Source of the DNA: a virus
Reading direction: 5' to 3' (one strand)
DNA length: 64,000 nucleotides
Virus record (IMG/VR): IMGVR_UViG_3300014627_000002
Span: 1 to 64,000 of that record
Of this stretch, positions 6,695-62,399 are shown one piece after another. The notes beneath the pieces are model-generated. The model ran no database searches. It worked only from the letters and a program-made list of their open reading frames with translations, and was not told where the DNA came from. The position numbers and the translations under genes were made by a program. Position 1 is the first letter of the stretch. Each line of letters begins with the position of its first letter.

Positions 6695-6739
6695 GGAATA
6701 TCAAAAAAAGCTCATTTCTAACTTTGTAAAAATATGGCT
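6695..6739 (+). promoter_or_regulatory. late-operon box (copy 3)
   Basis: GGAATATCAAAAAAAG at 6695; AAAATATGGCT at +34. The inverted repeat ATGGCTATA (6734-6742) / TATAGCCAT (6755-6763) includes the ATG at 6762. Confidence 0.6.
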
Positions 6740-6761
6740 ATACCCTTAGTGAGTTATAGCC

Positions 6762-7382
6762 ATGCTTCAAAATTTTATGCCCACACTACGCGATTACGTG
6801 AATGATGAAATCGCTATGCGCAGTTTGGGAGCTGCAATGTTGCAGTCAAATGCCATGATGGTTCCTGAATGTGCTCCCGAACTTGCTTTATTGATTACCA
6901 ATTTTCAGCGTCCCGTTATCACATTCAATGAATCTGCTGATTTCAATGTTGCTGGCGGTGCACAGTTCCATGTACCAGGTGCACCGAAAAACCGCTATGA
7001 AGGTCCGATTCAGATGATTGAAACGGATTTCGGACAGGTGACAGCACTTTCCGAGCTGTTAATGACGATGGGGTCTACAAACTGCATTATTTATGATGGG
7101 CGTCCTGATCGGTACACACAGGCTTATGAGTTGCGTAATTGTAGCTTTACATTTGAACCGCTGGATATTGATGGGGAGGGTGTAAGTAGCATTGTTCGCG
7201 CTTCTGCAACCATGAAATATAACTATACCGGTATTAATGCAGAGCTTGGGTCAGTTGATACTCTTGGCCGTATTATTGGTGCAGATCAGGGTACTAAAGC
7301 GTTATTTGAAAAGGCAAAACAATATCTTGACCTAATTTATGCGGGTAACACCATTATGAATGCAATTAAGGATCTTTATTAA
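6762..7382 (+). CDS. virion structural protein (tail tube or baseplate component, unassigned)
   Basis: 206-aa ORF behind a late box in the tail/baseplate cluster. No diagnostic motif. Confidence 0.4.
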   Translation: MLQNFMPTLRDYVNDEIAMRSLGAAMLQSNAMMVPECAPELALLITNFQRPVITFNESADFNVAGGAQFHVPGAPKNRYEGPIQMIETDFGQVTALSELLMTMGSTNCIIYDGRPDRYTQAYELRNCSFTFEPLDIDGEGVSSIVRASATMKYNYTGINAELGSVDTLGRIIGADQGTKALFEKAKQYLDLIYAGNTIMNAIKDLY

Positions 7383-9265: not shown

Positions 9266-9310
9266 GGAATATCAAAAAAACTCATTATTTTAAAGCCGGA
9301 AAATAGAGCC
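9266..9310 (+). promoter_or_regulatory. late-operon box (copy 4)
   Basis: GGAATATCAAAAAAAC at 9266; AAAATAGAGCC at 9300 (+34). AGCCTA (9307-9312) / TAGGCT (9327-9332) plus T6 lies just before the ATG at 9339. Confidence 0.6.
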
Positions 9311-9338
9311 TAGTTATAGACATAATTAGGCTTTTTTA

Positions 9339-10901
9339 ATGAGCAAGGTCGGAACATTTTTATCAGACATATTCTCAAGTCGCCAGGTTGTCCAGCGTAG
9401 TGAAGGCATAGCCACGGTCAATGATATTAATGAGGTTTATGAAAATTTTGAACCTTATTCATTGGGCGTCTATTACGGTGAGCAGTTAAAACGCCGTGAT
9501 CGCAAGACCATCTATACTGAATATAAGATGATGATGCAGGACCCGACCATTCATGCCTGCTTGAATATGCTGGTTGCCGCTGCTTTAGGCGGTCATGAGT
9601 CACGCGGGGAAGTTATCTTTATCCGTCCGGCTGACAAGCTTATGGGTCCAGGTATTCGAGCGAAAGAATTAAGAAAAATGGTGGAAGCGGAAGCGGAACA
9701 CTTACAGAGCTTGATTAATAGAGTGATCTTTTCTTTTGCACGTAATGGCATCGGCTATGGTGATTCATTTGCCCGGGTGTACCCGCAGCGTGGTTATGGA
9801 CTTGCTCATATTTTATGTGATGAAACAGTAGATCCACCATTGATTCAGGCTTTTGAACAAGCTGGCCGGACGGTAGGTTTCCATATTCTTGAAGTCAGTG
9901 ATTATGAAACTCGCCGGCTAACCAAACTTGGTCTACACCAGATGGTCAGAATGAAAATGCAGCGTGTATCTCCATTACCTCAATTTAGGATTGATCACGT
10001 ACTGCACCAGCAACTACTTCAAGAAGATGATTTAACTAGGGTGCCTATTATCCCATCGCCGGTAGGCGGTTCATTTTTGCAAGCGGTTGAGCCCGCATGG
10101 AAAGAATGGATGCTGAGTTTTGCTGCATTAAACAGTCAGCAGATTGCGGATAGTGTAAATAACCAGTTTTTCTCTATGGACGTGTCTGCGATGCCGAAGG
10201 CGGCACGTGAAAAATATAAAATTGGATTACATCAATCACTTTCAGCACTACATGAGAAGGTTAAGAAGGCATTGCAAGGCGGGGAACCCTTATGGCAAAC
10301 GAATTATACGTTTTTGCCATCGTGGGGAGAAAAACAGGTGCTTAATTCATTAGGTGATCTGACCAAACGTGCGGCGCCGTTAAATATGGAACTGGCACTT
10401 ACACATTTAAAGCGGGGTGTTGGTGCACTCGGGCTAGATTTATCCTTAACAGGCTTTATGGAGCTGATTAGTGGCGGTTTAGGCGATGGTGCGACTTTCC
10501 ATACATCTGCTCAGGTCATGCAAAATAGTATTCTTATTCGTCAGGCTGTGACTGATCCTATTATTGATCTCTGTCTTATGCATTTCGCCTATAAATATGG
10601 AACGGTCTATAAACGGGGTGATCTGCCCTTTAAAATTGAGTTCTATAGCGATATTAGTGCGGCTGCAACTGAATCACTCAATAATAAAAATATACGTGCT
10701 AATAACTTGTCTATGACGACAGGGGCCATTCTAGGGCTTAAAGAAATTGAACTGGATGAACATTCAAATTTCCTGCTGTTAACCAATACATTAGGTATGG
10801 ATGATAGCGAAGCACAAGCTCTTTCCAAATCATTAGCGAGGGGAATCAAGGCTAAACAGGATGAACAAAACAATGGCCATGAAGATGATGAGGAAATTTA
10901 A
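9339..10901 (+). CDS. portal protein (probable)
   Basis: 520 aa with an acidic C-terminus (HEDDEEI). YTEYKMMMQDPTIHACLNMLVAAALG resembles the conserved portal N-terminal motif. Preceded by a late box. Confidence 0.5.
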   Translation: MSKVGTFLSDIFSSRQVVQRSEGIATVNDINEVYENFEPYSLGVYYGEQLKRRDRKTIYTEYKMMMQDPTIHACLNMLVAAALGGHESRGEVIFIRPADKLMGPGIRAKELRKMVEAEAEHLQSLINRVIFSFARNGIGYGDSFARVYPQRGYGLAHILCDETVDPPLIQAFEQAGRTVGFHILEVSDYETRRLTKLGLHQMVRMKMQRVSPLPQFRIDHVLHQQLLQEDDLTRVPIIPSPVGGSFLQAVEPAWKEWMLSFAALNSQQIADSVNNQFFSMDVSAMPKAAREKYKIGLHQSLSALHEKVKKALQGGEPLWQTNYTFLPSWGEKQVLNSLGDLTKRAAPLNMELALTHLKRGVGALGLDLSLTGFMELISGGLGDGATFHTSAQVMQNSILIRQAVTDPIIDLCLMHFAYKYGTVYKRGDLPFKIEFYSDISAAATESLNNKNIRANNLSMTTGAILGLKEIELDEHSNFLLLTNTLGMDDSEAQALSKSLARGIKAKQDEQNNGHEDDEEI

Positions 10902-10904
10902 GAA

Positions 10905-11609
10905 ATGGCATTTGATCTAAAGAATTTTAACGAGGTTAATATACTTGGCCAAGCAAAAGACAAGCTGGCCAAGACTGTTAATAAACAGAAAGATCGGCTG
11001 AGCCGAATTGCTCAGGAAAAGTTAGAAACGATTTCAACCCAGGCCATGAGAAAACAGCAATGGTTTGGGCACTCAGCTGAAGACTTCAAACAGCTCTATT
11101 TAGAAATTTATGGATTAGGCCAGCTGTTAAATGCCAATTATTTTGTAGAGTTTGAAGCCTATGAGGACAATGCTACTGCTAATTTACCCTTATTTGCTGA
11201 TGGATTAAGCGGGTACCTGGTCAGTCAGACCAATTTAAACCTACTTCAAGCTGAATTTGAACAGGTCAAAGTGGGGACCATGCAATCTAATCATTTTGTA
11301 GGGATAAGTGAACCTGATTTGCAATTAAGCCTGATTGAAACAGCAGATGCCCGCTTCATGAATACAATCATGGACTGGCGGGATCTTATGGTCAATCCAG
11401 ATGGCACAGCGAATGAACCGGCAAACTATGCCATGATCATAACAATTGGCATGTTTTCCCGTGATTTTGGCCTGCAATATAAGCCTTTTTCACGGCGTTT
11501 TATCGTTGGACCGTCACAGTCCAGCAAAGATGATTTAACCGGACAGGGAACCAGTGAAGTTGCAGAGGTGCCATTTACTTTAACGGTCCTTCGCAATTTC
11601 ATGGAATAA
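10905..11609 (+). CDS. hypothetical head-module protein
   Basis: 234-aa ORF 3 nt after the portal-like gene. Confidence 0.55.
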   Translation: MAFDLKNFNEVNILGQAKDKLAKTVNKQKDRLSRIAQEKLETISTQAMRKQQWFGHSAEDFKQLYLEIYGLGQLLNANYFVEFEAYEDNATANLPLFADGLSGYLVSQTNLNLLQAEFEQVKVGTMQSNHFVGISEPDLQLSLIETADARFMNTIMDWRDLMVNPDGTANEPANYAMIITIGMFSRDFGLQYKPFSRRFIVGPSQSSKDDLTGQGTSEVAEVPFTLTVLRNFME

Positions 11610-11647
11610 CAAAAAATACCGGCTTTTTAATGCGCCAGAATACTCAA
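11603..11647 (+). promoter_or_regulatory. late-operon box (copy 5)
   Basis: GGAATAACAAAAAATA overlaps the stop codon of the upstream gene; AGAATACTC at +34; ATG at 11673. Confidence 0.55.
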
Positions 11648-11672
11648 ATAAATGCATTAAAAGGCCCCAACC

Positions 11673-14600
11673 ATGTTAGAAAACACCCACTTTGTAATTG
11701 ACCATAAAACTGGTGACACAATAAAGCTCATGACACCAGATGGTGTGCTTCTTGACTCATGCGATGCCAATATTGGCCAGTTAAAAGGAGAGCATCGCCA
11801 ATTAAAAGCCATTCTATGTGATGGCGCTTTGCCTTCAGATCAGTGGCAAGTTATGAACGTGGTCAGCGATTCAGGTATGTTTCTGGACCATGTTGCTGTA
11901 AAAGGCGCCGTCAGTGCCGAACAAGCTGAACGTTTATGCACTAAATATCTGCTATCACATGGGACCACGGCCAAGCTTCAGCAGCCTGTATCATTATCAG
12001 ATAGCGGCTTAAAAATCTTTCTGGACAGCGCAACCACTCCAACCGGTACCGCCTATTTGTTAAAAACTGATGCGGCTATCTATGATTCTATGTCTACCTC
12101 AACTAAGGTCCAGTGGAGTGAAGATAATCATGTGCTATCTCATGATGGCCAGTTGTCTAATGTCATGTTCGACATGGCACGCTATGACGTAAACAAAGAA
12201 CTTCTTACCAAAGTTACCCCTCAAGACATTGCCGGCTTGCTGATTGATGATCAGTGTACGATGTTCATGTATGACGCAATGGTCCTGAAATATCGCCAGC
12301 TGGACACGGCCATGCAAAAAATTGCCGAAGCCCTAAAAGCGGCTGGCCATGAAGAATTTTTCGTAAAAAATGTCACACCAATTGAACCATTCAAGCGGCA
12401 AGGCGTGGTCAATGTCGGTGCTATTTTTGAAATGTCGGATACACAGACCGTTACAGTGCTCTTTAATAATCCTGATACAACACCAGCAAAGCTTACTGAC
12501 AGTGATGTGATTACGAGCTGGAAATGGATTTTAAATAAACGTGATGTAACTGCTGTATTGCAGCCACGGGCGGTAGATGCAAAGAAATATCCAATGATTG
12601 CAGGACGTATTTTCCAGCTTCTTGCAAAAAACCATAGCCGTTTTAAGCGAGCTCAGGCAATCCGGGCCAAAGATGAAGCGTTACTCAGTGAGTTAATGAC
12701 CCAGCTTGATGCAACACAGGTTGAGTCACTTACCCTGGATGAACAGCTGAAAAAGCTTAATCAGGAAATTGATCAGATTGGGATCGATAAACAAAAAAAT
12801 ACTGAAGTACTCAAATCTGATAATCCAGGTACTTCAAAAGGAGATCCTGAAAGTAATCCAGATGAAACAATCTATATTTTAAAAAGTTCTAATCCACGTG
12901 CACGGAAACCAGCAGGCAGCATCAAACTAAAAAATAAGAATGGCATATATGATGTGATGTTACAGGACGGCACCGTAGGCGGTGAGTTTATCGGGAATAT
13001 AACCGCCGTGAAAAACTGGCTAATAAGCCGTCTTGCTTCTTTAGGTGATGCGATTGGCGAAAGTGCATCATGGGAGAAAGTTGTAGCACGATTAGAGCTT
13101 AAAACTGGTAATGATGTACTTGATATTGCTGAACAGGCGCCAGAGCTAACAGGTGACGAGTTCGGTGAATTTGATATTGACTTGCCAGAAGATAAAAAAG
13201 CGCTGCGTGAAATAGTGAAGACAGCACTAAAAGAGATGGTGGGCCAGTCTTTCCCATGCCCTGCTTTAAATGCGAATGTTGAAATTCGTACTAATGGGGT
13301 TAAAAAACTAATCAGTATGAGTGGGGATGCGCGCAAACTACAAGCTGTAGCGGCATTAAAAGAGCTTCTGGCAATTGCATATAAGGTAGATGAAAGAAAA
13401 TCTTATGCTGAGCTCACGGAGCGAAATATTGTTGCCTATCACATTATGAGTGCGCCGTTAAAATTAGATCAAGAGTCTTTGAACGTGCTATTTGTGATTC
13501 GTGAGGATGACAAAGGCCACTATCACTATGATCATAAAATTGAAAAATCTGTAGTACAGAATGTAAAAAGCCCGCTATTAGACGGGCTTCTCACAGTAGC
13601 TTTTCCAACGGCGGGAGTGTCACAAGATGATCTTGCTGGACTGACCCACTTAGCAAGCTACCGGCGTAATGACAGTATAGAAAGTGATCATAATATTGTC
13701 AACACCATGTTCGATGATGCGAACGCTGATGATGCCGAAGTGCTCAATATGTTCATCATTGCCGAAGGTCAGGTTGCTGAACCGGAAGATGTGCCTGAAC
13801 CTGCACAGGTGCCAGAGGGCTTTAATCTGGTTAATCCTTCAGATGGTTACTGGCAGCTACGCCGTGAAGGGGTAAACCGCTTTGTAGTCATTATGGGGGA
13901 CAAGAACGGCTATCAGGCCCAAAGCCAGAGCGCGTCTTCAACCATTGTTAAAAGCTTGGATTCAGCAATTGCTTGGGGCGTTACCTTGTTAAACGACCTT
14001 CATCAAGACCTTATGGCCAAGAATGAGCAAGAACAGGATCTTATTAATAACTGGCGTGATCAAATTCCTGCAAATCTTGATAAAGAGCTATTTTTAAAGG
14101 CTTTTGATATGGTGAAGGACCATACCGTTAAACATGAATGGAACTGGAATGATGCCACGATCTTTAATTTCTTGGTTAAATCCTTCGAGCGTTTTGAACA
14201 GGCTCATGCATCTGTCGGTTTTTTCTTTCAGCTATCAAATGAAATTCTAAATAACGGGGTTAATGAGCTAAGCCGCAAGCTATACGCCTTATATACCAAT
14301 GGTGATGTGGTATTAGCTGGCCAAAGCCAAAAAGCAGGTAAAGAACGCATGCAGGAATATGCAAAAACCGTCTTTACTCAAGATCAGCTTGATCAGTATG
14401 AAGCGGATAAGATTCAAGCTGAAAAAGATGAAATCGAAGCAAAAAAAGCAGCTTTAGAACAGGAATTGCGGGAGTCAGTTAAAGTTATCTGGATGAGTAT
14501 ACCGGCAGGTGATCGGGGGATGATGCAAGGCTGGCTTAACAGTGGTTATGACATGGTTCGGGTGAAAAAGGGCGCAACCTATCGTTATCAATTTACCAAT

Positions 14601-16749: not shown

Positions 16750-16794
16750 GGAATATGGAAAAAACTGGAAATTTCTACTTCATAAAATGGGGGT
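16750..16794 (+). promoter_or_regulatory. late-operon box (copy 6)
   Basis: GGAATATGGAAAAAAC at 16750; AAAATGGGGG at +34 (16784); ATG at 16821. Confidence 0.55.
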
Positions 16795-16820
16795 GGTTCA
16801 ACCATAAAACAGAGTAGGCT

Positions 16821-19800
16821 ATGCCATTCAACAATACTGCCCGTGCGGGTTTGCAAGTTTTTTCAGATGCTTTATCAGCACTGAAAAACAAAGTTTCCCC
16901 ATCTCATGCACCAACTGGTGTATATGAATTTCAAGATGAGAAAATTACGCCAACCAAGCGCCAGAAGGCAAACAATGCGGCCGTAAGTCTGTTACGGCAA
17001 TTACAGAATGAATCGGGGTTAAAGGCGACAGCTGAACAGAAGGTCACTTTATCGCGGTACACCGGTAAAGGGGGAAATTTAGAAGTAGAAGGGGTAAAGG
17101 GGAGCCAATATGAATACTACACACCGGTCCCTTTAGCTAATGCACTGTGGGACCTCTTAAAAGAACATGGCTTTGACGGCGGCGCCGTACTCGATCCTTG
17201 CGCGGGGACTGGTATTTTTGCAGCTGGCCGACCTGAATCAGTGGTGATGCAGTCCGTAGAGCTTAATGATGTTTCTGGCGGTATTAATGCGTTGGTAAAT
17301 GACCAGGCAAATCACAATGTCATTGTAAGCCCTTTTGAGAAAATCGCTTCTCAGACGCAAGACAATGTTTATGATGCTGTTATTACTAATGTGCCGTTCG
17401 GTTCACGTGGAGATCGGGGCGATAATGCCCGCCATGATATTTATTCAGATGATGATTTAGACTCATACTTTGTTAAACGGTCAATTGACAAATTAAAGCA
17501 CGGTAAACTGGCCGTATTTATTGCTCACCCAAAATTACTTACGGGTGCCGGTCATAAGAAGTTCCGTCAATATATTTCTCTACGTGCTGAACTGGTGGGA
17601 GCATACCGCCTGCCTAACAAGGTATTCCAAGCTACAGGCGCAGATGTAGTAACTGATGTTCTGGTATTTCGCAAACATACTGAAGAACTGACACAGAAAA
17701 TTGAAAACCTATATGACAATGGTTCACTTCAAGTACTTCAAGATTCCCGCATTCTGGATGCCGATATAATTGACGGTCGATATTACAAGGCTGAAGGTCA
17801 AAAAAACGTACTTGGCCAAAGTACGATAGTCAAACATGCAAAATTTAAAACAGATGTAGAAGCTGTTTTAAGTGATGAAAGCCTGCCGAATATCTTAAAA
17901 CTGATTCGCCGTTTTCCAGACAGCCGTATTAATTATGGGATGCTGGAATTAACAGAAATGAAGCCAGTTTTACCGATACAAGAAGGTGATATTCGTGTCA
18001 TCGGCGGCACTACATTTGAATATCAGGATGGTAAATGGATTAGCACAGGCCAGACAGCCACTTATAGTAATGCTGAAAGCTTTAGTAAGGCCCTCACAGC
18101 TTTTATGTCAGGCATGACTTATGTTGATCTGATGGCTTATCAGAGTCATTGTGTGGCATCACATTACAAGTTATCTGCATGGGCTGGCCAGTTAATTGAT
18201 GTAGTACAAAGCACAGGTGTAGAAACTTATGCACACTGGCTGGTCCAGTTTGCACTGTATGAAGCTTTACAGGCCGAAGCCTATAACAGCTATGCTCAGA
18301 ACTATCCTAAGCTTACAAGTGCTTTAAAGGGCATCGCGGGGCAAGTTGGTAAAAAACCATATAAACATGCTTCAGTTAAGACCCTGGTAACGTTTAACAG
18401 TAAGGCTTTCGATAAAAATTCAGCTGATGGCCTGTCAGCCTATTGGTATGGCAGCACTATTGAAATTGCACAGGCACTAGATGCCAAAGGCGCTTATGAA
18501 AATGCAATTTATATGGGTCGTGCTAAAGACTTTATGGTATCCGTTGATGAAATCCGGCAGACCGATCCTAATTTTGACCCATTGGCTAATGAAGATTATG
18601 CAATTTCAGGGGACGGTCAGTATGTCACGTTAAATCGGGACTATTACACGGGCAATCACGGCGAATTTTTACAGCAGATTGATGCACAGATTGAAGCCGC
18701 AACAGATCCTAAAATACGTGCAAAACTGGTCCAGCAACGTAAAAAATCATTTGAGCATGTTGATTATGTCGATGTGGCCAATATTAATTTAGGTTTACGT
18801 GCTACCAACATTGATATACAGGTCAAAAGTGATTTTCTAAGCCTGTATGGTGGGGATGCAGTGACAGTCGATGAAGACGGTCGCATTCGCTTAAAAGACA
18901 AGCAAGAGCCATTAGATCGCATTATCCGCATTATGAAGCGGGACGGGGTGCAAGGTGCTCAACATCGTTGGGTTCAAACGTTCTTCTTAAACCGTATCTT
19001 GGATTCAGTTAATAACAATGTCCGCCTAACATTGAAGGCGAATAAGGATGAAGTATCTAAGCAGGATCATGACCTGGTATTTAAGGCTTTTTTAGAATAT
19101 GCAAATGAGCTAGATGCAACCTTTAGTGCTTATCTAAAAGCCAATATCGGGTTTATGGAAGACCTAGATGCAAAAGTAAATGACCCAATGCATAAAGAAA
19201 TGCAGAGTGAGCTAGATACTTCACCAGTAGAGGTCAAAGGCTTTGCACCTAAGTTTGCAACATTTAAAGCGATGCAGACTTATCAAAATGCAGAAGTACG
19301 CCGTTTAAGTCGCCGTTTTGAAGGAATTACCGGCTTTGATGTAGGTTTGGGTAAGACACTCACTTCAATTGCAGCTGCACAAAACCTGCATAATATTGGC
19401 GTTAAAAAGCGTACCTTGTTTGTGGTTCCATCACATACGATTTCTAAATGGTATCGTGATATGCAAATGTCGTTAGATGATTACAGTGATGTATTAGTCA
19501 TCGGCTTAAAGGGCAATACACTAAGTTCGGTCAATAGTAGCCATTACGGTGCTGACTTAAACCTATTGCTTAGTGAACCCTATCGCAAGATCCTGATTAC
19601 TAGTGATGCTTTCACTATGATTCCGCTACGTGACCGCACCATTGAAAAATATTATGAAAGTAAAAAGGCAAAAATCGATTTTTCAAAAGATAAAGACCGA
19701 GAAAAATGGAACGCATTTATTGGCAAGAAAAAAGAACCACTTCAAAAAGATGTAGGCCGCCTACCATTTTTTGAGGACCTGAATATTGATAGCATCATTT

Positions 19801-23814: not shown

Positions 23815-23859
23815 GGAATAGTAAATTTCTGGCTTTTTTTAATATGTTTAAATGTTCAA
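23815..23859 (+). promoter_or_regulatory. late-operon box, weak copy
   Basis: GGAATAGTAAATTT lacks the A-run; TAAATGTT at +34; ATG at 23887. Confidence 0.3.
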
Positions 23860-23874
23860 TTGAACAAATGAAGG
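23844..23874. promoter_or_regulatory. TGAACA-repeat array (class A, locus 3)
   Basis: ATGTTTAAATGTTCAATTGAACAAATGAAGG; contains the perfect 14-bp palindrome TGTTCAATTGAACA (23853-23866). Confidence 0.55.
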
Positions 23875-23886
23875 AATAAACAAATT

Positions 23887-24171
23887 ATGCGTGAAGCGAA
23901 AGATCATCCTAATTTTAGTGAGATCCTTCAGTATGGCCATACTGTTGAAGCCGACATTGCAATGTTTATGAATGGCGAATTTTGGCAGTATTACAAGCGG
24001 GGGGACTTTAGCACTAAAAACTATTGGTATTGTCTACCAGTACGCAACGGGCAGGCTCTTGGCTGGCGAAATGGCTATGTTGCATGTATGAACCAGCTAA
24101 AAGATTTTTATATAAATATGGGTAAAAAAGTTGAGCTTATAGAAATCAGGAATAAGGAAAAAACCTCATAA
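23887..24171 (+). CDS. hypothetical protein
   Basis: 94-aa ORF with RBS-like AAGGAA upstream. Confidence 0.55.
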   Translation: MREAKDHPNFSEILQYGHTVEADIAMFMNGEFWQYYKRGDFSTKNYWYCLPVRNGQALGWRNGYVACMNQLKDFYINMGKKVELIEIRNKEKTS

Positions 24172-24193
24172 GGTAAATAGACAAAAATAGCCC
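24149..24193 (+). promoter_or_regulatory. late-operon box (copy 7)
   Basis: GGAATAAGGAAAAAAC at 24149; AAAAATAGCCC at +34. AGCCCTA (24189-24195) / TAGGGCT (24204-24210) plus T-run abuts the ATG at 24216. Confidence 0.6.
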
Positions 24194-24215
24194 TATAAAT
24201 TAATAGGGCTTTTTT

Positions 24216-24989
24216 ATGGCTTTTATAAAACCGAAGATTGTGAACCAGGCTAAGCCAAGTACACAGTATGAAAATAAAAGCGATTGGGGGAACTTGTCAG
24301 ATGTATACAAGATGCGCATTCGCTTATGTGATAAAGAGGGAAACCTACTTGATCAATACGCTCAGCAAATCGTTGGAGTCGCCGTAGATGGCGATATATC
24401 CATAGATAATCAGTACAGCACACCATTTGAAAATTCAAATCCTGAACATCGATTACCTACTATGATGGGGATGCTGCAATCTGGTGATTGGGTAAATACG
24501 CTAGAGATCGGCTTATCAAATGTATTTGGCATAGAGCTTAGCCAGGATAAGAAAGAATCTATTAACGCATTAGAAGGCCGGAGCAACTTAACTAAGGTTA
24601 ATTCTACTCAGATATTTGTTGCAACCCAGCCAATTACAATTTCTACCACACTGTATTTTTCAGCTTGGCGTAGCGCAAAAATAGAAGTCGAACAGCAAGT
24701 AGCCTTACTTAAACAGTGGGCTTTACCCAACAAATTAGCTGACGGCAGCATTTTAGCCAGTGCGCTAGAAGATAAATCATTACTTTCATTATTTCCTTCT
24801 GAAGTACCGCCGTATGTGTCGATCTACTACGGAGGTAAGAAATATACCCCCTTATTAATTCAAAGCGTATCTGAACCATTAGTCGTGCCTATGACTGAAG
24901 ACGGGGACCGTCTAGCGCTGCAGGTACCAGTCACATTTGTATCCCGTACAGCCTGGGATAAAGACAATATTTCTAAAATTTATTTATAA
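24216..24989 (+). CDS. hypothetical virion protein
   Basis: 257-aa ORF behind a late box. No motif recognised. Confidence 0.55.
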   Translation: MAFIKPKIVNQAKPSTQYENKSDWGNLSDVYKMRIRLCDKEGNLLDQYAQQIVGVAVDGDISIDNQYSTPFENSNPEHRLPTMMGMLQSGDWVNTLEIGLSNVFGIELSQDKKESINALEGRSNLTKVNSTQIFVATQPITISTTLYFSAWRSAKIEVEQQVALLKQWALPNKLADGSILASALEDKSLLSLFPSEVPPYVSIYYGGKKYTPLLIQSVSEPLVVPMTEDGDRLALQVPVTFVSRTAWDKDNISKIYL

Positions 24990-27749: not shown

Positions 27750-28736
27750 ATGACATACACAACAGAATACTTAGAAAATGAAGCCGGTATACAAAATAAC
27801 GGTGTCACCATACTGAATGATCAAAAAATTGAATTACAAGTTTCTGGCTTGGTCATTGGCCAATTTAAGCGTGGCCGCTTTGACAAACCCATGACAATCA
27901 CAAGTGCAAATGTACGCGGTACTCTTGGCCATGATCCACGCAACCCGTGGTACCAAATTATTGTTGATGCCATAGATTCAGGTGTACCAAGTATTGAAGT
28001 TTTGCGTATACCAGGTAACTACTACAATTATGAAGATGTTGAGCCAGAACCAGAACCAATCTGGCAACCGTGGCAATTTGACCAAGAAATTTCTATTAAC
28101 AGCAATATGGCGAGATATACAGCTTCTAAAACCAACGGTAAGCAATTAGCAAGCAGTTATGCCGAAATAGATTTAATAGCTGCTCTGGTACGCTCATTTT
28201 CTGATATAGATATGCAACAGTGGCAAGCTGTGAAAGATGCAGCAAATCAATTGACAGGTGTGAATGATTGGGTTTTAGATCCGGCGAATAATCGCGTTAA
28301 ATATTATGAAAAAGTAAGTACTGGTAAGTATGGCTGGGTTGAAGTTAATAATGATACTGATCCCAAACACATTTCAGCTACTCTTGCATGTCAATTTTAT
28401 GCTTCTAAACTAAAAAGAACGTACGCTCGAACTTATCAATTTTCTGATCGAAATGCGTTTTGTTATGATGTTAAAAATGATCTTTATGTTCAATTAGCTC
28501 GTACTCTTCAACCCCCGATTGTTGAAGAACAAGAAAGATATTTACCTCTCGATGTTGTAGCGCAAAAAGTCATCTCTAATGCTGAGTCACTGGACCAGGG
28601 TATTTCTCTTTTAGCAGAAACCTATATAGAAACCGTCGCGAAAAGTATTTTTAACAGTGACCAGTCAAAGCAATTTGTGAAACAAGATGATCTGGTATTG
28701 CAATTTGAAGAAAACAAGGTGATTGAAAATTTATAG
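27750..28736 (+). CDS. virion protein with tail-sheath-like N-terminal module (paralogue B, 328 aa)
   Basis: The N-terminal ~90 aa are shared with ORF 773..1309. The C-terminal 240 aa are unrelated to it. Confidence 0.4.
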   Translation: MTYTTEYLENEAGIQNNGVTILNDQKIELQVSGLVIGQFKRGRFDKPMTITSANVRGTLGHDPRNPWYQIIVDAIDSGVPSIEVLRIPGNYYNYEDVEPEPEPIWQPWQFDQEISINSNMARYTASKTNGKQLASSYAEIDLIAALVRSFSDIDMQQWQAVKDAANQLTGVNDWVLDPANNRVKYYEKVSTGKYGWVEVNNDTDPKHISATLACQFYASKLKRTYARTYQFSDRNAFCYDVKNDLYVQLARTLQPPIVEEQERYLPLDVVAQKVISNAESLDQGISLLAETYIETVAKSIFNSDQSKQFVKQDDLVLQFEENKVIENL

Positions 28737-31027: not shown

Positions 31028-31309
31028 TTACTGTCCCTTATATTTCTCTAATCCATCTTTCAAGAACTGGTTAAGCGCTTCTCTACGAGTCTTAAATTTA
31101 CGTGAATTAACTACGAACAGGTCCAGTTCCTGTTTTGTATCTGCATCACAGTCCCAATTCACACGGACCGTTTCTGCACTAGCTGCGGCCTTTTTACTTG
31201 GCGCTGTAGTGTCTTCAGCAGGGCTATCGTTTTGTGCAAACTCTTTAGCTTCTGCAAAACGGTTTTTAGCACCTGGTTTAGCAATTGCCTGGCGTGGTTT
31301 TGTCGTCAT
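31028..31309 (-). CDS. small ParG-like (ribbon-helix-helix) partition/centromere-binding protein
   Basis: 93 aa, immediately downstream of parA. It has a disordered basic N-terminus and an RHH-like C-terminus (VRVNWDCDADTKQELDLFVVNSRKFKTRREALNQFLKDGL). Confidence 0.45.
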   Translation of the reverse strand: MTTKPRQAIAKPGAKNRFAEAKEFAQNDSPAEDTTAPSKKAAASAETVRVNWDCDADTKQELDLFVVNSRKFKTRREALNQFLKDGLEKYKGQ

Positions 31310-33509: not shown

Positions 33510-34295
33510 TCAATACTTATTCGTAACGAATAGAACACGCCCTAAAATCTGGAAAGTTGGGTCATTTTCAGTATTGACAGTGTATTCAGGAAAATTTTCC
33601 TGTTTGGCTCTTACTCGAATGCTGCCATCAGGTTCAAGAAATAAAGTACGCACATATTTATTTTTACCATGCTTAATTACAAAGTAATCACCATTGGTAC
33701 TCGGTGTAACTTCTTCCTCCTTCAAGTTAAAAGTGACAGCTGCGCCGGGTGTAATTTCGGGTGCATTTGCACGATCTTCAGAATAGACAAATCGTAGATC
33801 GTTATGTGAAATATTATCGCTTACTAGCTGAGCCGCTATCATAATTGTTGAATCTCTACCCGCGTTTTTATCTTTGAGTGCATTAGGATTATTCGCATCC
33901 TCATACATGCGCACAAGAATAAAATTTTCGTCAGATATGCGCAAGGTATTATCTTGAACTTTTACAATAATGTCTTGCTGTTCAAGTCCTGCAAGCCACT
34001 CACTATTTAATCCGAGGGCTTTTGCGATATTGGGAATGAAGCGGGATTTCTTGGTTTTCCCCATAATGATACGGCTAATTGTGGCTTGTTCTACATCGGC
34101 TAATTTTGCTAATTCATCCTGCGTAAGCCCCGATTCATCAAGGGCAAGTTCTAATCTGACTGAGGACAATGGACGATCCGTATTGAGTTGCCCAAACCCC
34201 TTTTTAACATAGTCAATAGTCTTGTCATCTTTAATATTTATTCGAGATGACAGAGAAGCCTCATCAACCGGATTCGGCTGTACGTTAATATCCAT
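33510..34295 (-). CDS. cI-like prophage repressor (XRE HTH + LexA/S24-like C-terminal fold)
   Basis: HTH: LTQDELAKLADVEQATISRIIMGKT. The C-terminal GDYFVIKHGKNKYVRTLFLEPDGSIRVRAKQENFPEY...ILGRVLFV parallels the lambda cI C-domain. The gene is divergent from a Cro-like gene. Confidence 0.75.
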   Translation of the reverse strand: MDINVQPNPVDEASLSSRINIKDDKTIDYVKKGFGQLNTDRPLSSVRLELALDESGLTQDELAKLADVEQATISRIIMGKTKKSRFIPNIAKALGLNSEWLAGLEQQDIIVKVQDNTLRISDENFILVRMYEDANNPNALKDKNAGRDSTIMIAAQLVSDNISHNDLRFVYSEDRANAPEITPGAAVTFNLKEEEVTPSTNGDYFVIKHGKNKYVRTLFLEPDGSIRVRAKQENFPEYTVNTENDPTFQILGRVLFVTNKY

Positions 34296-39530: not shown

Positions 39531-39557
39531 AAAGCCCGCATTACGCGGGCTCTTTCT
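39530..39557. terminator. bidirectional terminator
   Basis: AAAGCCCGC-attac-GCGGGCTCTTTC between convergent genes. Confidence 0.7.
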
Positions 39558-39946
39558 TACTTATATGAACATACTACATACGCCAGTTGATCATATCTAG
39601 ATCCTGGTTCGGTATCTAACCAGCCTGTAGATTGTTCCATTCTTTTGAGGACCTTATCTGTAGAGCTAAAAATAGTAAATTTATCCACTCTAAAGCGGTC
39701 ATTTTCACAGTCAAAGCTATTCAGTGAAAGCATATACTGCCCTTTTTTCATTATTTCAGAATCTTGTTCAGCTTTTATCACAAACCAAGCTTGACGCTTG
39801 GTGTGCCTGCCGTCTAAGTATTTCATGTCTTTTAAATTGACAGAATAGTTACTTTCGCCGTCTGAGCCTATTTCCTCCCAGGCATACGCCTGTAATGAAA
39901 CAAAGCAGAGAACCCCCACAAAAATCTTAATTAAAGTTTTATTCAT
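39557..39946 (-). CDS. secreted surface-adhesin-E-like protein (moron)
   Basis: Signal peptide MNKTLIKIFVGVLCFVSLQAYA. WEEIG...YSVNLKDMKY...AWFVIK...LNSFDCENDRF...GWLDTEPGSRYDQLAYVVC fits the small protein-E-like family pattern. Reverse orientation. Confidence 0.5.
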   Translation of the reverse strand: MNKTLIKIFVGVLCFVSLQAYAWEEIGSDGESNYSVNLKDMKYLDGRHTKRQAWFVIKAEQDSEIMKKGQYMLSLNSFDCENDRFRVDKFTIFSSTDKVLKRMEQSTGWLDTEPGSRYDQLAYVVCSYK

Positions 39947-40163: not shown

Positions 40164-40207
40164 AAATGTTTAAATGAACAAAAGAACATTTAAACAAATA
40201 AACAAAC
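40164..40207. promoter_or_regulatory. TGAACA-repeat array (class A, locus 5)
   Basis: AAATGTTTAAATGAACAAAAGAACATTTAAACAAATAAACAAAC (TGTTTAAATG / CATTTAAACA inverted). Confidence 0.55.
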
Positions 40208-40449
40208 TTAATGAGATAAGTATGAATCAAGTAGCCGTTTTTTTTCATCATCAATCAAATTTGAATAACGCCCTTCAGGAAAACAATGGCGATGCATATC
40301 GCAAGATTATGATGCAGGCTGAAAAGCCAGTAATTGAACATACTTTGGTTATTTGTCGTGGCAACCAGACCAAAGCTGCTGAAATGCTGGGCTTAAACCG
40401 TGGCACGCTTCGTAAAAAAATGAAAGAACACGGCTTTATGAAGGCTTGA
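40174..40449 (+). CDS. Fis-family small DNA-binding protein
   Basis: The C-terminal RGNQTKAAEMLGLNRGTLRKKMKEHG is a Fis-type HTH. The first ATG lies inside the repeat array, so the true start may be the ATG at 40222. Confidence 0.65.
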   Translation: MNKRTFKQINKLNEISMNQVAVFFHHQSNLNNALQENNGDAYRKIMMQAEKPVIEHTLVICRGNQTKAAEMLGLNRGTLRKKMKEHGFMKA

Positions 40450-45844: not shown

Positions 45845-46715
45845 GCAGCGGACGGGTCTTGAAGCAATTGGCTGGAATGGACAAGTAATTACGGCACTTG
45901 ATGTATGTGTTTGTGTGGATACTGAACGCGGATCTGGTAATGATTTCTTAATCTATCCAATGTTCTTTTTTGATTCAAATCATCCTGAATATAAGAAGAA
46001 TACTTTTGCCCGCTGTGTGCAGCCACAAATTAGCTTGTATCCGGGGACATATAACGCAGATATATTGAGGAAAGCTGAACCTGAAGAACTGGCCATAGGG
46101 CGCCGTATTTATAAAAACGCTGATGATTTAAAAAAGGCTGCTGGCGTACAGGCTGAATCGGTACATATAGATTGTGATTTTGAAAAGTTGAACGCCTTTT
46201 TTGAAATCTATAAAGACTCTTTGCATTACCAGGCACGTAAAGAAAAACGGCCAGATTGGACGGATATAGCTTTATTTGGTTATTGCCCGGACTCTGATGA
46301 TTTTGTAGACCCTAGAGCCAGTGACGCTTATATGGTGTTTAAGGCGCAACAAGAAAAATTAGACTGGTTATTAGGTGGAATCGAAATGGCTATACACCAG
46401 GCAAAGTCAATTGAGCGCAATGGGGATATAAGCATAAATAGCTATAGAACTATTAAATCTAAGATGCGTTTATATGATTTCTTAATAACACTTCGTAAGA
46501 CCCCAAAAAGGCATAAGAGTAAGTTTGCTGATCTGGTTAGAAGAACTTTAGTTTTAGAAGGTGAAGCGAGAAAAGTACAAACTATTCGAGATAAGCTTTA
46601 CGAGCTAATTTGCCAGTTTGAAAGCTTTGGTATTACCGGGATTAGTGCTGATACCCGTAGTGCTTATTTTGATGCCAAGCATAAAGTTCAAGAACTTCAA
46701 GAAATCTTATTTTAG
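45831..46715 (+). CDS. hypothetical protein
   Basis: 294-aa ORF overlapping its upstream neighbour. Confidence 0.6.
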   Translation: MSVNKQRTGLEAIGWNGQVITALDVCVCVDTERGSGNDFLIYPMFFFDSNHPEYKKNTFARCVQPQISLYPGTYNADILRKAEPEELAIGRRIYKNADDLKKAAGVQAESVHIDCDFEKLNAFFEIYKDSLHYQARKEKRPDWTDIALFGYCPDSDDFVDPRASDAYMVFKAQQEKLDWLLGGIEMAIHQAKSIERNGDISINSYRTIKSKMRLYDFLITLRKTPKRHKSKFADLVRRTLVLEGEARKVQTIRDKLYELICQFESFGITGISADTRSAYFDAKHKVQELQEILF

Positions 46716-48375: not shown

Positions 48376-49044
48376 ATGAATATGCAGACTGAAGACAAAG
48401 AAGCTTTTTTTGATGAAAAAAGACTGATCACAGTCGTTGGCATCAATTGTTTACGTGCACGGGAAATTGCTGGCTTAACCCGTAAAGAAGCCCAGGCACG
48501 TATTTTTAGATATAAAAACCCGGATATGTTTGCTAACCGGATATGCGAGATCGAAACCGGCAACAAGAAAATTGATCTTAAAATTCTATATCGCATGTGC
48601 GTTGAGTACTCATGCAGTGCTGACTATCTGTTGGGCCTAAGCAATGACTTTGAGCGTAACCTGGCATCGTCTTATTCAGGTATGGTTTTTAATTCGGTCC
48701 GTGGTAGCGTTTTGGAAATGACTGAGCGTGTTTGTACGCAAATGTCAGAGATCGTGCGCTTTCTGCCGCCGTTTCAGGGGGAATTATTAAAAAACAGTGC
48801 CAAGAATACAGTAGATACTATAGATCAGCATTTGCATGATCTGGCGTTTAAGGGCTCTTATCCGGATATTGTTGATGCTTATAATGATTTAAAGGCGAAG
48901 GTTCAGATGTTTGATACCTTCTTTGCTAAGCAGATGCGGATTATGGAGTTAAATATGCTGGACCAGTTAAATCATAAGGATGATGAACTTTCTAGCCGTA
49001 CTATGACCGACTATACTGCATTGCCTGTACCTGAGAAGTGTTAA
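48376..49044 (+). CDS. XRE-family HTH regulator with 120-aa C-terminal extension
   Basis: LRAREIAGLTRKEAQARIF...ICEIETGNKKIDLKILYRMCVEYSCSADYLLGLSND. Confidence 0.6.
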   Translation: MNMQTEDKEAFFDEKRLITVVGINCLRAREIAGLTRKEAQARIFRYKNPDMFANRICEIETGNKKIDLKILYRMCVEYSCSADYLLGLSNDFERNLASSYSGMVFNSVRGSVLEMTERVCTQMSEIVRFLPPFQGELLKNSAKNTVDTIDQHLHDLAFKGSYPDIVDAYNDLKAKVQMFDTFFAKQMRIMELNMLDQLNHKDDELSSRTMTDYTALPVPEKC

Positions 49045-49048
49045 TTGA

Positions 49049-50170
49049 ATGGCCAAGACTCAAGAACCGGATGCGATTAGCAAACGCCATGACACTGATC
49101 TATGGCGTGAAATACGCAAGCTTTATGAGTCAAAGACTAAACCTACTTATGACAAAATTAAGGCAATTCTGGTTGCTGAGTTCCAGTTAGAAAAATTCCC
49201 ATCAAAAAGCACAGTTGAACGCCGTGTGAAAGATGAGGGCTGGAAACGTGCCAGAGTCGGCACAGATCCATTATCAAATCGCTTTGATGAAACCTTCTGG
49301 AAGTGTGTTAAAACCATTTATGAAAGCAATCCTAAGCTGTCATATAAGCAGCTGCGGGACATGGTTCAAAATGAACTTCAATGCTCCGAGTTCCCATCTG
49401 CCCAGGCTATTACCGCCAAAGCCAAGAGAGAAGACTGGAAGTATCTGAATAATCTGGTAAAAATAGCTGACACAGACTTAAAAAAAATCAAAACCATCGT
49501 CAAAAATCAGATAATTCAGGACCGTGAAGATGACGGCGAAGATGATGAAAATTATGATGAAGATCAAGAGTTTAATATCTTCACTGACCCTAAAGCGATT
49601 GAAGCCAGAAAAATAGCCGAATTTGAAAAAGACAAACTCAAAAACCTCACAATGGCGGCGAATGATAAGCGCCAGAAACTTGCTGATGTAATCCTGATTT
49701 CACGGAAACGCATGCGCACGATGAACTATGTAGGGGATATGTTTTCTGATCGTCTGCTAGAACTGTATGTCATGCAGAACAGCGATGCATTTAAAGAAGT
49801 TTGCCCGCCTGAACTAATGGACCAGATTAGCCGGGACCAAAAAAAACTAAGCGGCTTACTGGCTGCATATAACGAGCTGTCATTTAACCGCCGTGAAAGT
49901 ATCAAGTTTGAGCTGTCTTTATACGGCGTACAGATGGATGACCTGCGCGATGCTGACAATGAAGGCCGGATAAAGAACCTTGAAGATAACAGCGCGTATG
50001 AAGCCCAACGTCAGCGCCTACGTGATGAAGAAAAGGAAATTGCTGAACGTATAGCACGCATTGAATCTGGTGCCCTTGAGCATGAGATTAATGAACGTAT
50101 TCAAAAACAGATGGATGAAATGAATGAAGAAGAAGAAATTATAGAAGCTGAATTTCAAGAAATGGAATAA
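49049..50170 (+). CDS. DNA-binding-type protein with tandem ~65-aa repeats (possible small terminase or late regulator)
   Basis: Repeats WREIRKLYESKTKPTYDKIKA...FPSKSTVERRVKDEGWKR and FWKCVKTIYESNPKLSYKQLRD...FPSAQAITAKAKREDWK; acidic coiled-coil C-terminus. Confidence 0.3.
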   Translation: MAKTQEPDAISKRHDTDLWREIRKLYESKTKPTYDKIKAILVAEFQLEKFPSKSTVERRVKDEGWKRARVGTDPLSNRFDETFWKCVKTIYESNPKLSYKQLRDMVQNELQCSEFPSAQAITAKAKREDWKYLNNLVKIADTDLKKIKTIVKNQIIQDREDDGEDDENYDEDQEFNIFTDPKAIEARKIAEFEKDKLKNLTMAANDKRQKLADVILISRKRMRTMNYVGDMFSDRLLELYVMQNSDAFKEVCPPELMDQISRDQKKLSGLLAAYNELSFNRRESIKFELSLYGVQMDDLRDADNEGRIKNLEDNSAYEAQRQRLRDEEKEIAERIARIESGALEHEINERIQKQMDEMNEEEEIIEAEFQEME

Positions 50171-50183: not shown

Positions 50184-50218
50184 GGCCTAGTTACCTGCAG
50201 TGACTAGGCTTTTTTTTA
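50184..50218 (+). terminator. rho-independent terminator
   Basis: GCCTAGT-N11-ACTAGGCTTTTTTTT. Confidence 0.8.
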
Positions 50219-50219: not shown

Positions 50220-50264
50220 GGAATAACGAAAAAAGCCAGTGGACCGCACCGCTGATAATTGGCT
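50220..50264 (+). promoter_or_regulatory. late-operon box (copy 8)
   Basis: GGAATAACGAAAAAAG at 50220; GATAATTGG at +34; ATG at 50290. Confidence 0.55.
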
Positions 50265-50289
50265 CAAGCATACTGAATGAGCTGATTTT

Positions 50290-56236: not shown

Positions 56237-56483
56237 ACTCCTTATTCAATTAGCTTTGATTCTGTTTCTAGTAATTGCTTATATTCTAGTTGGGCTATAT
56301 TTCAATTACCTTAGAAAAGATAAAGTTTTAAGCGCATTTACATGGATTATCTTCATGGGGGTAATTGGAGGTTATACCCAAACTTTTTCAATTACGGCGC
56401 TCACTGATTGGAATGATTTGTGGTGCATCTTTGCATTTAGTTATTTATTTATTTATGAAGCACCTGATTGGGTAAAGTCGTGA
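56229..56483 (+). CDS. small membrane protein
   Basis: 84 aa with three hydrophobic segments. Confidence 0.55.
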   Translation: MIELLIQLALILFLVIAYILVGLYFNYLRKDKVLSAFTWIIFMGVIGGYTQTFSITALTDWNDLWCIFAFSYLFIYEAPDWVKS

Positions 56484-56722
56484 TGCCAAGTAAAGTAAGA
56501 ACCTTAAATCAAGAAGATTGGAAACGTACACAGCTAAGAATGCCACAAGAGCAATATCAGACAGTGGCTGGTTACGCTGAGAAAAACAATCTTTCCCTTA
56601 ATTCAGCAATCTTAGAGCTGCTGGAAAAAGCTGTAGATTTAGACAGTGATGTGAGTGTAAGCGACTCATCTATTACAAAAATAGCCGATAAGGTTATCGA
56701 GCGTATAAGGGGCCATAACTAA
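56483..56722 (+). CDS. Arc/MetJ-type ribbon-helix-helix protein
   Basis: TQLRMPQEQYQTVAGYAEKNNLSLNSAILELLEKA; TGATG coupling to the upstream gene. Confidence 0.55.
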   Translation: MPSKVRTLNQEDWKRTQLRMPQEQYQTVAGYAEKNNLSLNSAILELLEKAVDLDSDVSVSDSSITKIADKVIERIRGHN

Positions 56723-56745: not shown

Positions 56746-56778
56746 AGGGCCAGTAGAAATACTGGCCCTTTAATTTTA
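56746..56778 (+). terminator. rho-independent terminator
   Basis: GGGCCAGT-agaaat-ACTGGCCCTTTAATTTT. Confidence 0.7.
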
Positions 56779-56823
56779 GGAATAGAAAAAAAACTGATTT
56801 TTCAGCTTCACCAAAATAAGCCT
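56779..56823 (+). promoter_or_regulatory. late-operon box (copy 9)
   Basis: GGAATAGAAAAAAAAC at 56779; AAAATAAGCC at +34. AGCCTTTTA (56819-) / TAAAAGGGCT (-56856) lies before the ATG at 56862. Confidence 0.55.
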
Positions 56824-56861
56824 TTTAGAAGTCAAAGACGCAAAACTAAAAGGGCTATTTT

Positions 56862-62141: not shown

Positions 62142-62399
62142 TTAATAAGTATGCTTTTCTAATGTACTAATTCGTTTAATTAATGACTCTTTAGAAACTT
62201 CTAGCTTAGCTACTATCTCTTCAAGATTGGATATCCTGTTTATTAAACTATTGGACTGATCATTATCTTGAAAAGTTGTTTCAAGCCGCAGAATAAGCTC
62301 AGTAGTTAATGTTCTCCCATTTTCCTTAGCGGCTTGATCCAGCTTATCTTTTAATTCGGCAGGGATTCTAAAATTAACTTGGGGGTCGGTGCGTGCCAT
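62142..62399 (-). CDS. Arc-like ribbon-helix-helix repressor with coiled-coil tail
   Basis: DPQVNFRIPAELKDKLDQAAKENGRTLTTELILRLE closely parallels P22 Arc (PQFNLRWPREVLDLVRKVAEENGRSVNSEI). Reverse orientation. Confidence 0.7.
   Translation of the reverse strand: MARTDPQVNFRIPAELKDKLDQAAKENGRTLTTELILRLETTFQDNDQSNSLINRISNLEEIVAKLEVSKESLIKRISTLEKHTY

Follow-up and report, generated by a model that had tools for sequence, protein, structure and literature searches.

A repeated late-gene leader cassette, probably an activator-dependent promoter nested in a hairpin, in a P1-type phage-plasmid of Acinetobacter

The first 64,000 nucleotides (nt) of IMG/VR virus record IMGVR_UViG_3300014627_000002, referred to below as the window, belong to a distant P1-type phage-plasmid of Acinetobacter. 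They contain a repeated leader cassette, exemplified by the copy ahead of the portal gene (9266–9341, + strand), that consists of a GGAATA box with an A-run, an A-rich hexamer at a nearly fixed distance and, at most sites, a hairpin reaching to the start codon of the next gene. The feature is real, conserved and previously undescribed. Most likely, the cassette represents a kind of late-gene promoter not described before, with transcription probably starting inside the hairpin. The best explanation is that an activator-dependent late-promoter design of a known kind would be joined here, genome-wide, to the promoter-in-hairpin arrangement known from a few genes of phage T4.

Cassette motif and spacing

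Ten strong cassettes are located on the + strand of the window and are named below by the first base of the box (703, 1330, 6695, 9266, 11603, 16750, 24149, 50220, 56779 and 63069); an eleventh, weaker + strand cassette is found at 62495. The consensus of the aligned sites is (T/C)A-GGAATA-NN-A6–7, a variable spacer and nAnAAT. An earlier sequence-only reading of the window had described a repeated, rigidly spaced leader ahead of late-type operons, with strong boxes at these ten positions; the description is supported and all ten boxes were found where it placed them. Enrichment over shuffled sequence, which that reading proposed as a check, was confirmed: GGAATANNAAAAA at one mismatch or fewer has 17 matches in the window against 4.6 expected, and none of 100 shuffles reached 17. 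A weight matrix of 46 columns, covering the whole cassette and trained on the ten strong sites, matched the window only at these sites, at 62495 (15.9 bits) and at 39757 on the minus strand, compared with 0.08 matches per shuffle. The minus-strand match (16.2 bits) lies inside gene 39557–39946 and is probably due to chance, as is, probably, an exact box GGAATATCAAAAAA at 25796 (+), which lies within a gene and is not followed by a −10 at the expected distance.

The hexanucleotide GGAATA occurs 53 times in the window. The nAnAAT hexamer begins at position 34 in nine of these occurrences and at position 35 in four, most other offsets having 0 or 1 and the maximum elsewhere being 3 (offset 62). 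The rigidity of the spacing thus stands, but the claim that it is exactly 34 nt in all copies does not, as there is a wobble of 1 nt. The starts of the open reading frames (ORFs) lie 56–83 nt from the box, the range given previously. The regions upstream of early genes in the window lack the GGAATA box and carry a different motif, which is described below with the gene content.

Conservation of the cassette in relatives

The box, the −10 hexamer and the spacing are kept ahead of the orthologous tail-tube, portal, 1103-amino-acid (aa), DarB-like and PmgG-like genes in every relative fetched, namely WCHA55, defluvii, soli, L011–L018 and L022–L024; altogether, about ten related Acinetobacter phage-plasmids have this architecture ahead of orthologous virion genes. 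At least 12 sites were counted in plasmid p1_010055 of Acinetobacter sp. WCHA55, eight in the A. defluvii plasmid and ten in the A. soli plasmid; the last retains GGAATA and the hexamer and has lost the A-run. The cassette is also present at loci from A. lwoffii, Acinetobacter sp. ANC 3813, an A. avistercoris metagenome-assembled genome (MAG), an IMG/VR contig and metagenome contigs. A variant box, TGGAAC(C/T), is found in vB_AbaM_ABMM1 (ABMM1), a temperate phage of A. baumannii. Its distance from hexamers of the CAAAAT type is unchanged, and a hairpin, a T-run and ATG again follow. From the ABMM1 and soli variants it follows that GGAA(T/C)-N~28-nAnAAT is the core of the cassette, to which the A-run was added in a clade-specific manner.

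A comparable pattern was noticed in Xanthomonas phage Rb1 (L025, 67% G+C), where GGAA(A/T/C)-N28–32-AnAAT occurs five times on the gene strand (690, 19021, 26903, 40049 and 46554) and not at all on the other, with 0.5 expected per strand. Judging by Rb1, the promoter type may extend well beyond Acinetobacter.

Hairpin geometry and covariation

Hairpins were surveyed at 67 curated sites of the window and its relatives, orthologues included. A dominant hairpin of at least 6 base pairs (bp) is present at 58 of the 67. With transcription taken to start 7 nt past the hexamer, 57 of these 58 hairpins have a 5′ arm that begins ahead of this predicted start, usually 0–3 nt after the hexamer. In 15 of them, the entire 5′ arm precedes the −10 end, so that it must be absent from any transcript of that promoter. 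At several of the 15, the −10 is in the loop (among them the 1103-aa family in six genomes, as well as defluvii 12777, soli 43450 and WCHA55 9498). The 3′ arm covers the AUG or ends a few nucleotides before it. The 8-nt tail contains at least four T at 19/58 hairpins and at least five at 8/58, and a subset of the hairpins have the GC stem–loop and U-run of an intrinsic terminator. The five hairpins whose coordinates had been quoted from the sequence proved to be exact inverted repeats followed by T-rich tails.

Comparison of orthologous leaders shows compensatory changes. The tail-tube leader has double substitutions at three pairs (GC→AU, AU→GC and AU→CG), with no broken pair in the main stem; the 1103-aa leader has double substitutions at five pairs. 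GU or UG pairs are present in three and two sequences, respectively, at two pairs of the 1103-aa leader, and UG in three sequences at one tail-tube pair. The arm sequences of different sites in one genome are unlike each other. The diversity of the arms, together with the compensatory changes, therefore points to selection for pairing and not for a shared operator sequence.

Translation signals and pairing with upstream RNA

The first cistrons have weak Shine–Dalgarno (SD) sequences. They had been described as lacking a good SD; the weakness is borne out, but ‘SD-less’ overstates it, as AGG, GGG or GAG motifs are found 6–10 nt upstream. The anti-SD duplex is −3.2 kcal/mol for the first cistrons versus −4.8 kcal/mol for other genes (p = 0.004).

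Each site was split at the predicted start and the upstream part was tested for pairing with the leader. The free-energy change on pairing (ΔΔG) is −10.4 kcal/mol compared to −4.1 kcal/mol with shuffled upstream parts, and z is below −2 at 58% of sites. The ribosome site is predicted to be unpaired at 0.32 in read-through RNA and at 0.57 in promoter-initiated RNA (67 sites; Wilcoxon p = 1e-11). Within the window, the pairing is specific to box-led genes (−9.5), as opposed to other intergenic starts (−4.8; p = 0.005) and internal starts (−3.2; p = 8e-5). Sequestration of the SD or AUG in RNA started upstream is predicted at most sites, not all.

Promoter architecture

The A-rich element, earlier called −10-like, behaves as a −10: the nAnAAT hexamer retains the sigma70 −10 positions A−11, A−9, A−8 and T−7. 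Placing the hexamer at −12 to −7 puts GGAATA at roughly −45 to −40 and the A-run at roughly −37 to −31. As the sequence-only reading had stated, there is no sigma70 −35; none is found at the right distance, the A-run occupies that place and the 28-nt gap between box and hexamer is too long for any sigma70-family −35/−10 pair. In a promoter scan of the window, no −35/−10 pair coincided with any box; the simple promoter/terminator scan missed most of the cassette hairpins and was excluded from the counts. Three complete relatives have no annotated sigma factor or RNA polymerase gene, and the Pfam listings contain none.

Two other sigma factor assignments were rejected. Reading GGAAC as the −35 of an extracytoplasmic-function-type promoter would leave a 28-nt spacer, which is too long, and nothing is conserved 16–17 nt downstream of the box; a sigma54 promoter would need GC at the −12 position, which is lacking. 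The box varies with phage lineage inside one host genus (GGAATA versus GGAAC), and a phage-encoded specificity factor is therefore indicated. On the best reading of these elements, the cassettes would be sigma70-type −10 promoters without a −35, bound by a phage activator at about −45 to −31.

Candidate activators

In a gene-by-gene comparison of five complete genomes, only 48376–49044 and 49049–50170 (both +) are common to all five, besides virion genes and the CI-like repressor. In each genome, this pair follows a nuclease gene and directly precedes the first late cassette. The candidate late activator, encoded by 48376–49044, is a 222-aa protein with an N-terminal XRE-type helix–turn–helix (HTH), which is its sole interpretable part; it is most like restriction–modification controller (C) proteins (Foldseek E = 1e-3, target TM-score 0.83). 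Its gene is conserved in every examined genome with the promoter type, always beside the first late cassette. Family members were recognised by hhalign in ABMM1 (98%) and, for the HTH part, in Xanthomonas phage Rb1 (94%), the gene order being the same. In Rb1, the homologue of the 222-aa HTH protein was again seen to follow a Holliday-junction resolvase gene.

The gene next to the first late box on its upstream side, 49049–50170, encodes a 373-aa protein, a candidate co-activator or DNA-binding partner. Its predicted fold has two tandem three-helix (HTH-like) bundles, an internal duplication, with a long coiled coil after them; the duplicated unit comprises about 60 aa, with the motif W..Y...FPS.RTV.RRA.KE.W. 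A Foldseek search of this protein against the PDB gave coiled-coil noise only, a PDB profile search gave nothing significant and a Pfam search with 34 members yielded no match over the threshold. Neither of the two proteins occurs outside this group; the corresponding ABMM1 proteins are named gp68 and gp69 in its GenBank record. They are the best activator candidates, a role suggested by phylogenetic profile, position and fold.

Other DNA-binding proteins were considered and rejected. A 91-aa Fis-family (HTH_8) protein is encoded in the early region (40174–40449, +); only WCHA55 shares it. The Arc-like proteins 56468–56722 and 62142–62399 (minus) were rejected as core activators for the same reason.

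Proposed mechanism and alternatives

Taken together, the cassettes can be described, with moderate confidence, as activator-dependent late promoters nested in hairpins, each late unit being expressed only from its own promoter. A phage activator produced from the last part of the early/middle operon would bind the GGAATA/A-run box and, once bound, would recruit or position the host sigma70 holoenzyme at the −10-only promoter, so that expression would be late. The 5′ arm of the hairpin lies right after or upstream of the −10, and the 3′ arm holds the weak SD or AUG, or ends in a U-run beside the AUG; transcription would begin inside or beyond the 5′ arm. Promoter-initiated RNA could then not form the hairpin and would have an open leader of about 14–38 nt (mostly 21–28), translated despite the weak SD. 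Read-through RNA would fold the hairpin and would be terminated where a U-run follows; otherwise, its ribosome site would be occluded. Each late unit would thereby be insulated and reliant on its own activator-dependent promoter. A left arm upstream of +1 had been taken beforehand as a refutation of a translational role for the hairpin; the relation is the reverse, this position being predicted by the geometry and forming the core of the likeliest mechanism.

Several points weigh against this proposal. The 67 sites include orthologues and are hence not independent, and the position of the start, 7 nt after the hexamer, is an assumption. Three or four window cassettes (703, 16750 and 50220) have little or no coupling hairpin; the hairpin is therefore not obligatory. 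A clear U-run follows only 19 of the 58 hairpins, so that ‘terminator’ fits a subset, and 56779 has a terminator upstream of the box too, making its downstream hairpin partly redundant as an insulator. As for the candidate activators, an XRE-type HTH usually binds palindromes as a dimer, and the box is asymmetric, unlike such palindromes; neither candidate has a relative of known function beyond the HTH fold.

The alternative that survives best, though it is unlikely, is that the hairpins are merely terminators or 3′-end stabilisers of the preceding operon, which overlap the promoter through compactness and have no role in translation. GC-cored hairpins with U-runs at 9266, 24149 and 63069 agree with it, as do the hairpins with the −10 in the loop (type B) at defluvii 12777, soli 43450 and WCHA55 9498, which resemble canonical terminators with T7–8 tails; moreover, boxes often overlap the stop codon of the preceding gene. 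However, the U-run is absent in 39 of the 58 hairpins, many 3′ arms hold the AUG or an SD-like motif (6695, 1330, 62495 and the 11603 family) and 56779 already has its terminator ahead of the box. In addition, the 5′ arm is tied to the −10, although a terminator could sit anywhere in the gap.

It is distinctly improbable that the box is read by a host factor or by a remodelled sigma, in the manner of T4 AsiA/MotA, and not by an activator from 48376–50170. The A-run is at the −35 position, P1 late transcription requires host SspA, and the 222-aa and 373-aa proteins are putative regulators only; yet the box changes with phage lineage in one host genus, which speaks for phage-encoded specificity, and no AsiA- or MotA-like match was found.

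Antitermination of the lambda Q or N kind, with a start upstream of the hairpin and a box-loaded phage factor allowing read-through, has very little in its favour beyond the order of promoter-like element, hairpin with T-run and gene, which resembles PR′-tR′ and had suggested this comparison in the first place. There are at least 11 cassettes per genome rather than one, the U-run is missing from many hairpins (those with one, 19/58, are a minority) and no Q-like protein is annotated or detected. The 5′ arm precedes the −10 end at 15 sites; elsewhere, it nearly always begins 0–3 nt after the −10, too near for a sigma70 start to precede it. The least probable alternative is that the inverted repeats act on DNA, as repressor operators over the start, a possibility also raised from the sequence at the outset, or as cruciforms exposing a single-stranded −10: the repeats do overlap the −10 and start region, and the −10 is in the loop at type-B sites, but the hexamer is outside the loop at type-A sites, the arms are unrelated within a genome and covary between genomes, with no common operator, and the tolerated G–U-type pairs fit RNA and not DNA. 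A 5′-terminal stabiliser hairpin was rejected, being at odds either with the variety of the arms or with where the 5′ arm lies in relation to the −10.

Individual cassettes in the window

All of the cassettes described in this section are on the + strand. In the focal cassette of the portal gene (9266–9341), the box GGAATATCAAAAAAA occupies 9266–9280 and the −10 GAAAAT 9299–9304, the predicted start is at about 9311 and the ATG is at 9339. The hairpin (9305–9317/9322–9334) has a GC core at 9307–9312/9327–9332, and the first bases of the T-run (9332–9337) fall within its 3′ arm. Orthologous cassettes are found in WCHA55, L011, L012, L013, L015, L018, defluvii and soli.

Hairpins reach the start codon or its ribosome site in several other cassettes. 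The cassette of the Hdf-like gene (1330–1399; box 1330–1344, −10 CAAAAT 1363–1368) has a hairpin at 1371–1402, the 3′ arm of which covers the AUG (1397). In that of the tail-tube gene (6695–6764; box 6695–6709, −10 AAAAAT 6728–6733), the AUG at 6762 had been placed inside a stem, correctly: it is within the 3′ arm of the hairpin 6733–6764, which has compensatory substitutions in relatives. The cassette of the 1103-aa gene (11603–11675; box 11603–11617, ATG 11673) has a long hairpin, 11621–11634/11653–11666, with the −10 CAGAAT (11636–11641) in the loop and an SD-like AAAGG in the 3′ arm; its covariation extends over six genomes.

Three further hairpins end in T-rich tails. The cassette preceding the PmgG-like gene and the lysis cluster (24149–24218; box 24149–24163, −10 AAAAAT 24183–24188, ATG 24216) has a hairpin at 24189–24196/24203–24210, then T6. 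The cassette 56779–56864 (−10 CAAAAT 56812–56817, ATG 56862) is preceded by a terminator at 56746–56769, upstream of the box, and its hairpin (56819–56827/56847–56856) is followed by ATTTT. In the cassette 63069–63143 (box 63069–63083, −10 CACAAT 63102–63107, ATG 63141), the hairpin 63105–63118/63124–63137 has its core at 63107–63114/63128–63135 and is followed by TTTTC.

Strong hairpins are lacking in three cassettes. In 703–775 (box 703–717, −10 AAGAAT 737–742, ATG 773), an intrinsic terminator lies immediately upstream of the box and a strong downstream hairpin is absent. The cassette of the DarB-like 2117-aa gene (16750–16823; box 16750–16764, −10 TAAAAT 16783–16788, ATG 16821) lacks a strong hairpin; in its WCHA55 orthologue, a hairpin flanks the −10. 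The cassette of the 701-aa tail-lysozyme-like gene (50220–50292; −10 GATAAT 50254–50259, ATG 50290) is the first late cassette past the early/middle operon, with a terminator (50184–50210) upstream of the box; its hairpin is weak, overlaps the 3′ half of the −10 hexamer and continues downstream.

Two copies had been listed as weak. That at 62495–62562 does lack the A-run after GGAATA, yet it has a proper −10 (CAGAAT, 62528–62533) and a hairpin, which covers the candidate starts GTG 62551, ATG 62554 and ATG 62560; this cassette is identical in the close relatives L022–L024. The copy at 23815–23889 is doubtful as a cassette: it has GGAATA without an A-run, its hexamer TTAAAT lacks the key A, it is below the threshold of the weight matrix and a strong SD (AAGGA) lies ahead of ATG 23887. 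Nor are all of the downstream genes of virion or lysis type, as had been supposed, the Hdf-like and DarB-like proteins and an unknown 236-aa protein being exceptions.

A third semi-conserved element was noticed in many cassettes, a GC-rich core of 4–6 nt and T5 directly after the A-run, at about positions 16–26 (A6-GCGCC-T5); examples are WCHA55 67133, L013 9928, L015 7372, defluvii 9180 and 20473, and others, and the element is weaker in window cassettes 11603 and 56779. Either an A-tract/T-tract bend or a portion of the activator site could account for it. When the mosaic close relatives L022–L024 are compared with the window at 62495 and 56779, the upstream sequence differs and identity runs from (A)TCA-GGAATA onward; the cassettes may, by this comparison, coincide with boundaries of recombination modules.

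Gene content and affiliation of the element

G+C makes up about 40% of the window, and the + strand carries most genes. PHROG matches include portal, tail-tube, PmgG-like head, Hdf-like and 2117-aa DarB-like methylase/helicase proteins. The portal is about 23% identical to P1 Prt, 37% identical to that of ABMM1 and 48–69% identical to proteins on four non-mobilizable Acinetobacter plasmids of 71–83 kilobases (kb). Relatives from Xanthomonas, Pseudomonas and Burkholderia were found as well. The P1-like proteins and the portal identities therefore indicate a distant P1-type Acinetobacter phage-plasmid. It falls outside the ‘AB’ group of phage-plasmids of Pfeifer et al., a different family of about 110 kb, related to SSU5. 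The contig in MAG record DALZHD010000015.1 is near-identical to the window; a megablast search with 8 kb of the window against the phage collection found no near relative. An Rfam scan of the whole window gave no family match, and the 1103-aa protein has no relation to polymerases. Promoters are not mentioned in the ABMM1 paper, and no paper on late transcription in this phage-plasmid family was found.

Palindromes like TTATGCG(C/A)AT(T/A)A lie upstream of 27750, 34488, 38287, 40174, 47921 and 57997. They adjoin good sigma70-type −10 elements, and none of the six regions has a GGAATA box. These palindromes look like scattered operators of the CI-like repressor (33510–34295, minus), analogous to the dispersed C1 operators of P1. 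The proteins encoded by 773–1309 and 27750–28736 (+) have a common N-terminal domain of about 88 aa and differ in their C-terminal parts; they match the same ORFs in WCHA55, soli and ABMM1 (45–56% identity over 84–140 aa). A late box precedes 773–1309 and not 27750–28736.

Significance

If the promoter-in-hairpin proposal is right, the arrangement of T4 e and I-TevI would be standard here for almost every late promoter, in many cases combined with a terminator. A more far-reaching, and tentative, generalisation is that a broad unstudied P1-related lineage of temperate phages and phage-plasmids, comprising Acinetobacter elements and possibly Xanthomonas phage Rb1, may have its own two-protein activator (an XRE-like HTH protein and a double-HTH/coiled-coil protein) acting at a GGAA-type box about 45 bp upstream, with promoters placed systematically inside hairpins that terminate RNA or occlude the ribosome site. 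Activator and hairpins would then amount to a genome-wide ‘promoter-inside-its-own-insulator’ design, in which every late unit is strictly dependent on its own promoter. For Acinetobacter phage-plasmids and prophages, a family that includes the isolated A. baumannii phage ABMM1, the analysis would give a concrete promoter model (box, spacing and −10) and two candidate regulator genes. It would bear on how plasmid prophages silence lethal late genes and could be of use for the annotation of transcription units and for insulated, activator-dependent expression cassettes in Acinetobacter.

Comparison with known systems

Among systems with a hairpin near the promoter, the virion RNA polymerase promoters of phage N4 have a conserved stem of 5–7 bp and a 3-nt loop, whereas the stems and loops in the window vary in length and sequence; no giant virion RNA polymerase of the N4 type was found in the window, the 2117-aa protein being DarB-like. 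The lambda PR′-tR′ region likewise has a promoter-proximal hairpin and T-run ahead of late genes, but the window has many cassettes, with the hairpin over the predicted start, no Q homologue and no long leader.

Promoters activated by Mu C and Mor, P2 Ogr and T4 MotA have a weak or partial −10 and no −35, and their phage protein binds either ahead of the −35 region or partly over it. The putative window promoters also combine a −10 without a −35 with an upstream box. The C, Mor and Ogr sites, however, are dyad-symmetric and placed elsewhere (in P2, TGT-N12-ACA at −55), and the MotA box is at −30; the window box is asymmetric, centred at about −40 and unrelated in sequence to the Mu, P2 or T4 sites. 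No activator homologous to these was detected.

Late promoters of phage P1 (LPsit, LPdar, LPs and others) are activated by Lpa (gp10) with host SspA. The window resembles P1 in its DarB-, Hdf- and PmgG-like proteins and in having, dispersed ahead of the virion and lysis operons of a P1-like genome, putative late promoters with a sigma70-type −10, no −35 and an upstream activator box. The P1 box AAGTGACTT, as taken from the annotated P1 record, is a 9-bp sequence centred at −22, 4 bp upstream of the −10, in contrast to GGAATA-NN-A7 at about −45 to −31. The P1 −22 box is absent from the window cassettes and the sequence at −22 is unconserved there, which upholds the early remark that the box matches no P1 late box. 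A phmmer search with P1 Lpa against all six-frame ORFs found no homologue (best E-value 0.06), and hhalign comparison of Lpa with the two candidate families gave probabilities of 0.4% and 0.3%.

Two P1 promoters (L007, AF234172) themselves lie in hairpins. The −10 of LPsit (46608–46626, minus) is within the 5′ arm of an 11-bp hairpin with a GAGG SD in the 3′ arm, and the pairing of its upstream part with the leader has a ΔΔG z of −5.6; in LPdar (31212–31230, minus), a CCTCCT/AGGAGG anti-SD/SD helix starts directly after the −10. This arrangement is occasional in P1, being absent from the other late promoters examined, and pervasive in the window.

A parallel in design comes from T4, where the late promoters of e, soc, 49 and I-TevI are located in the DNA encoding the 5′ strand of a helix that sequesters the SD or AUG. 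Silencing thus affects the long transcripts, whereas those begun at the late promoter lack the 5′ strand and are translated (PMC3014915, PMC2988022). Other members of this type of control are segB and mobE of phage Aeh1. The same logic, with silent read-through and open promoter-initiated RNA, is proposed for the window cassettes. The T4 cases use a gp55-dependent TATAAATA promoter and concern a handful of genes, whereas the window has a sigma70-type −10 with a distal box and the design occurs at most of its predicted late promoters, often merged with a terminator. The resemblance to T4 is one of mechanism, not of family.

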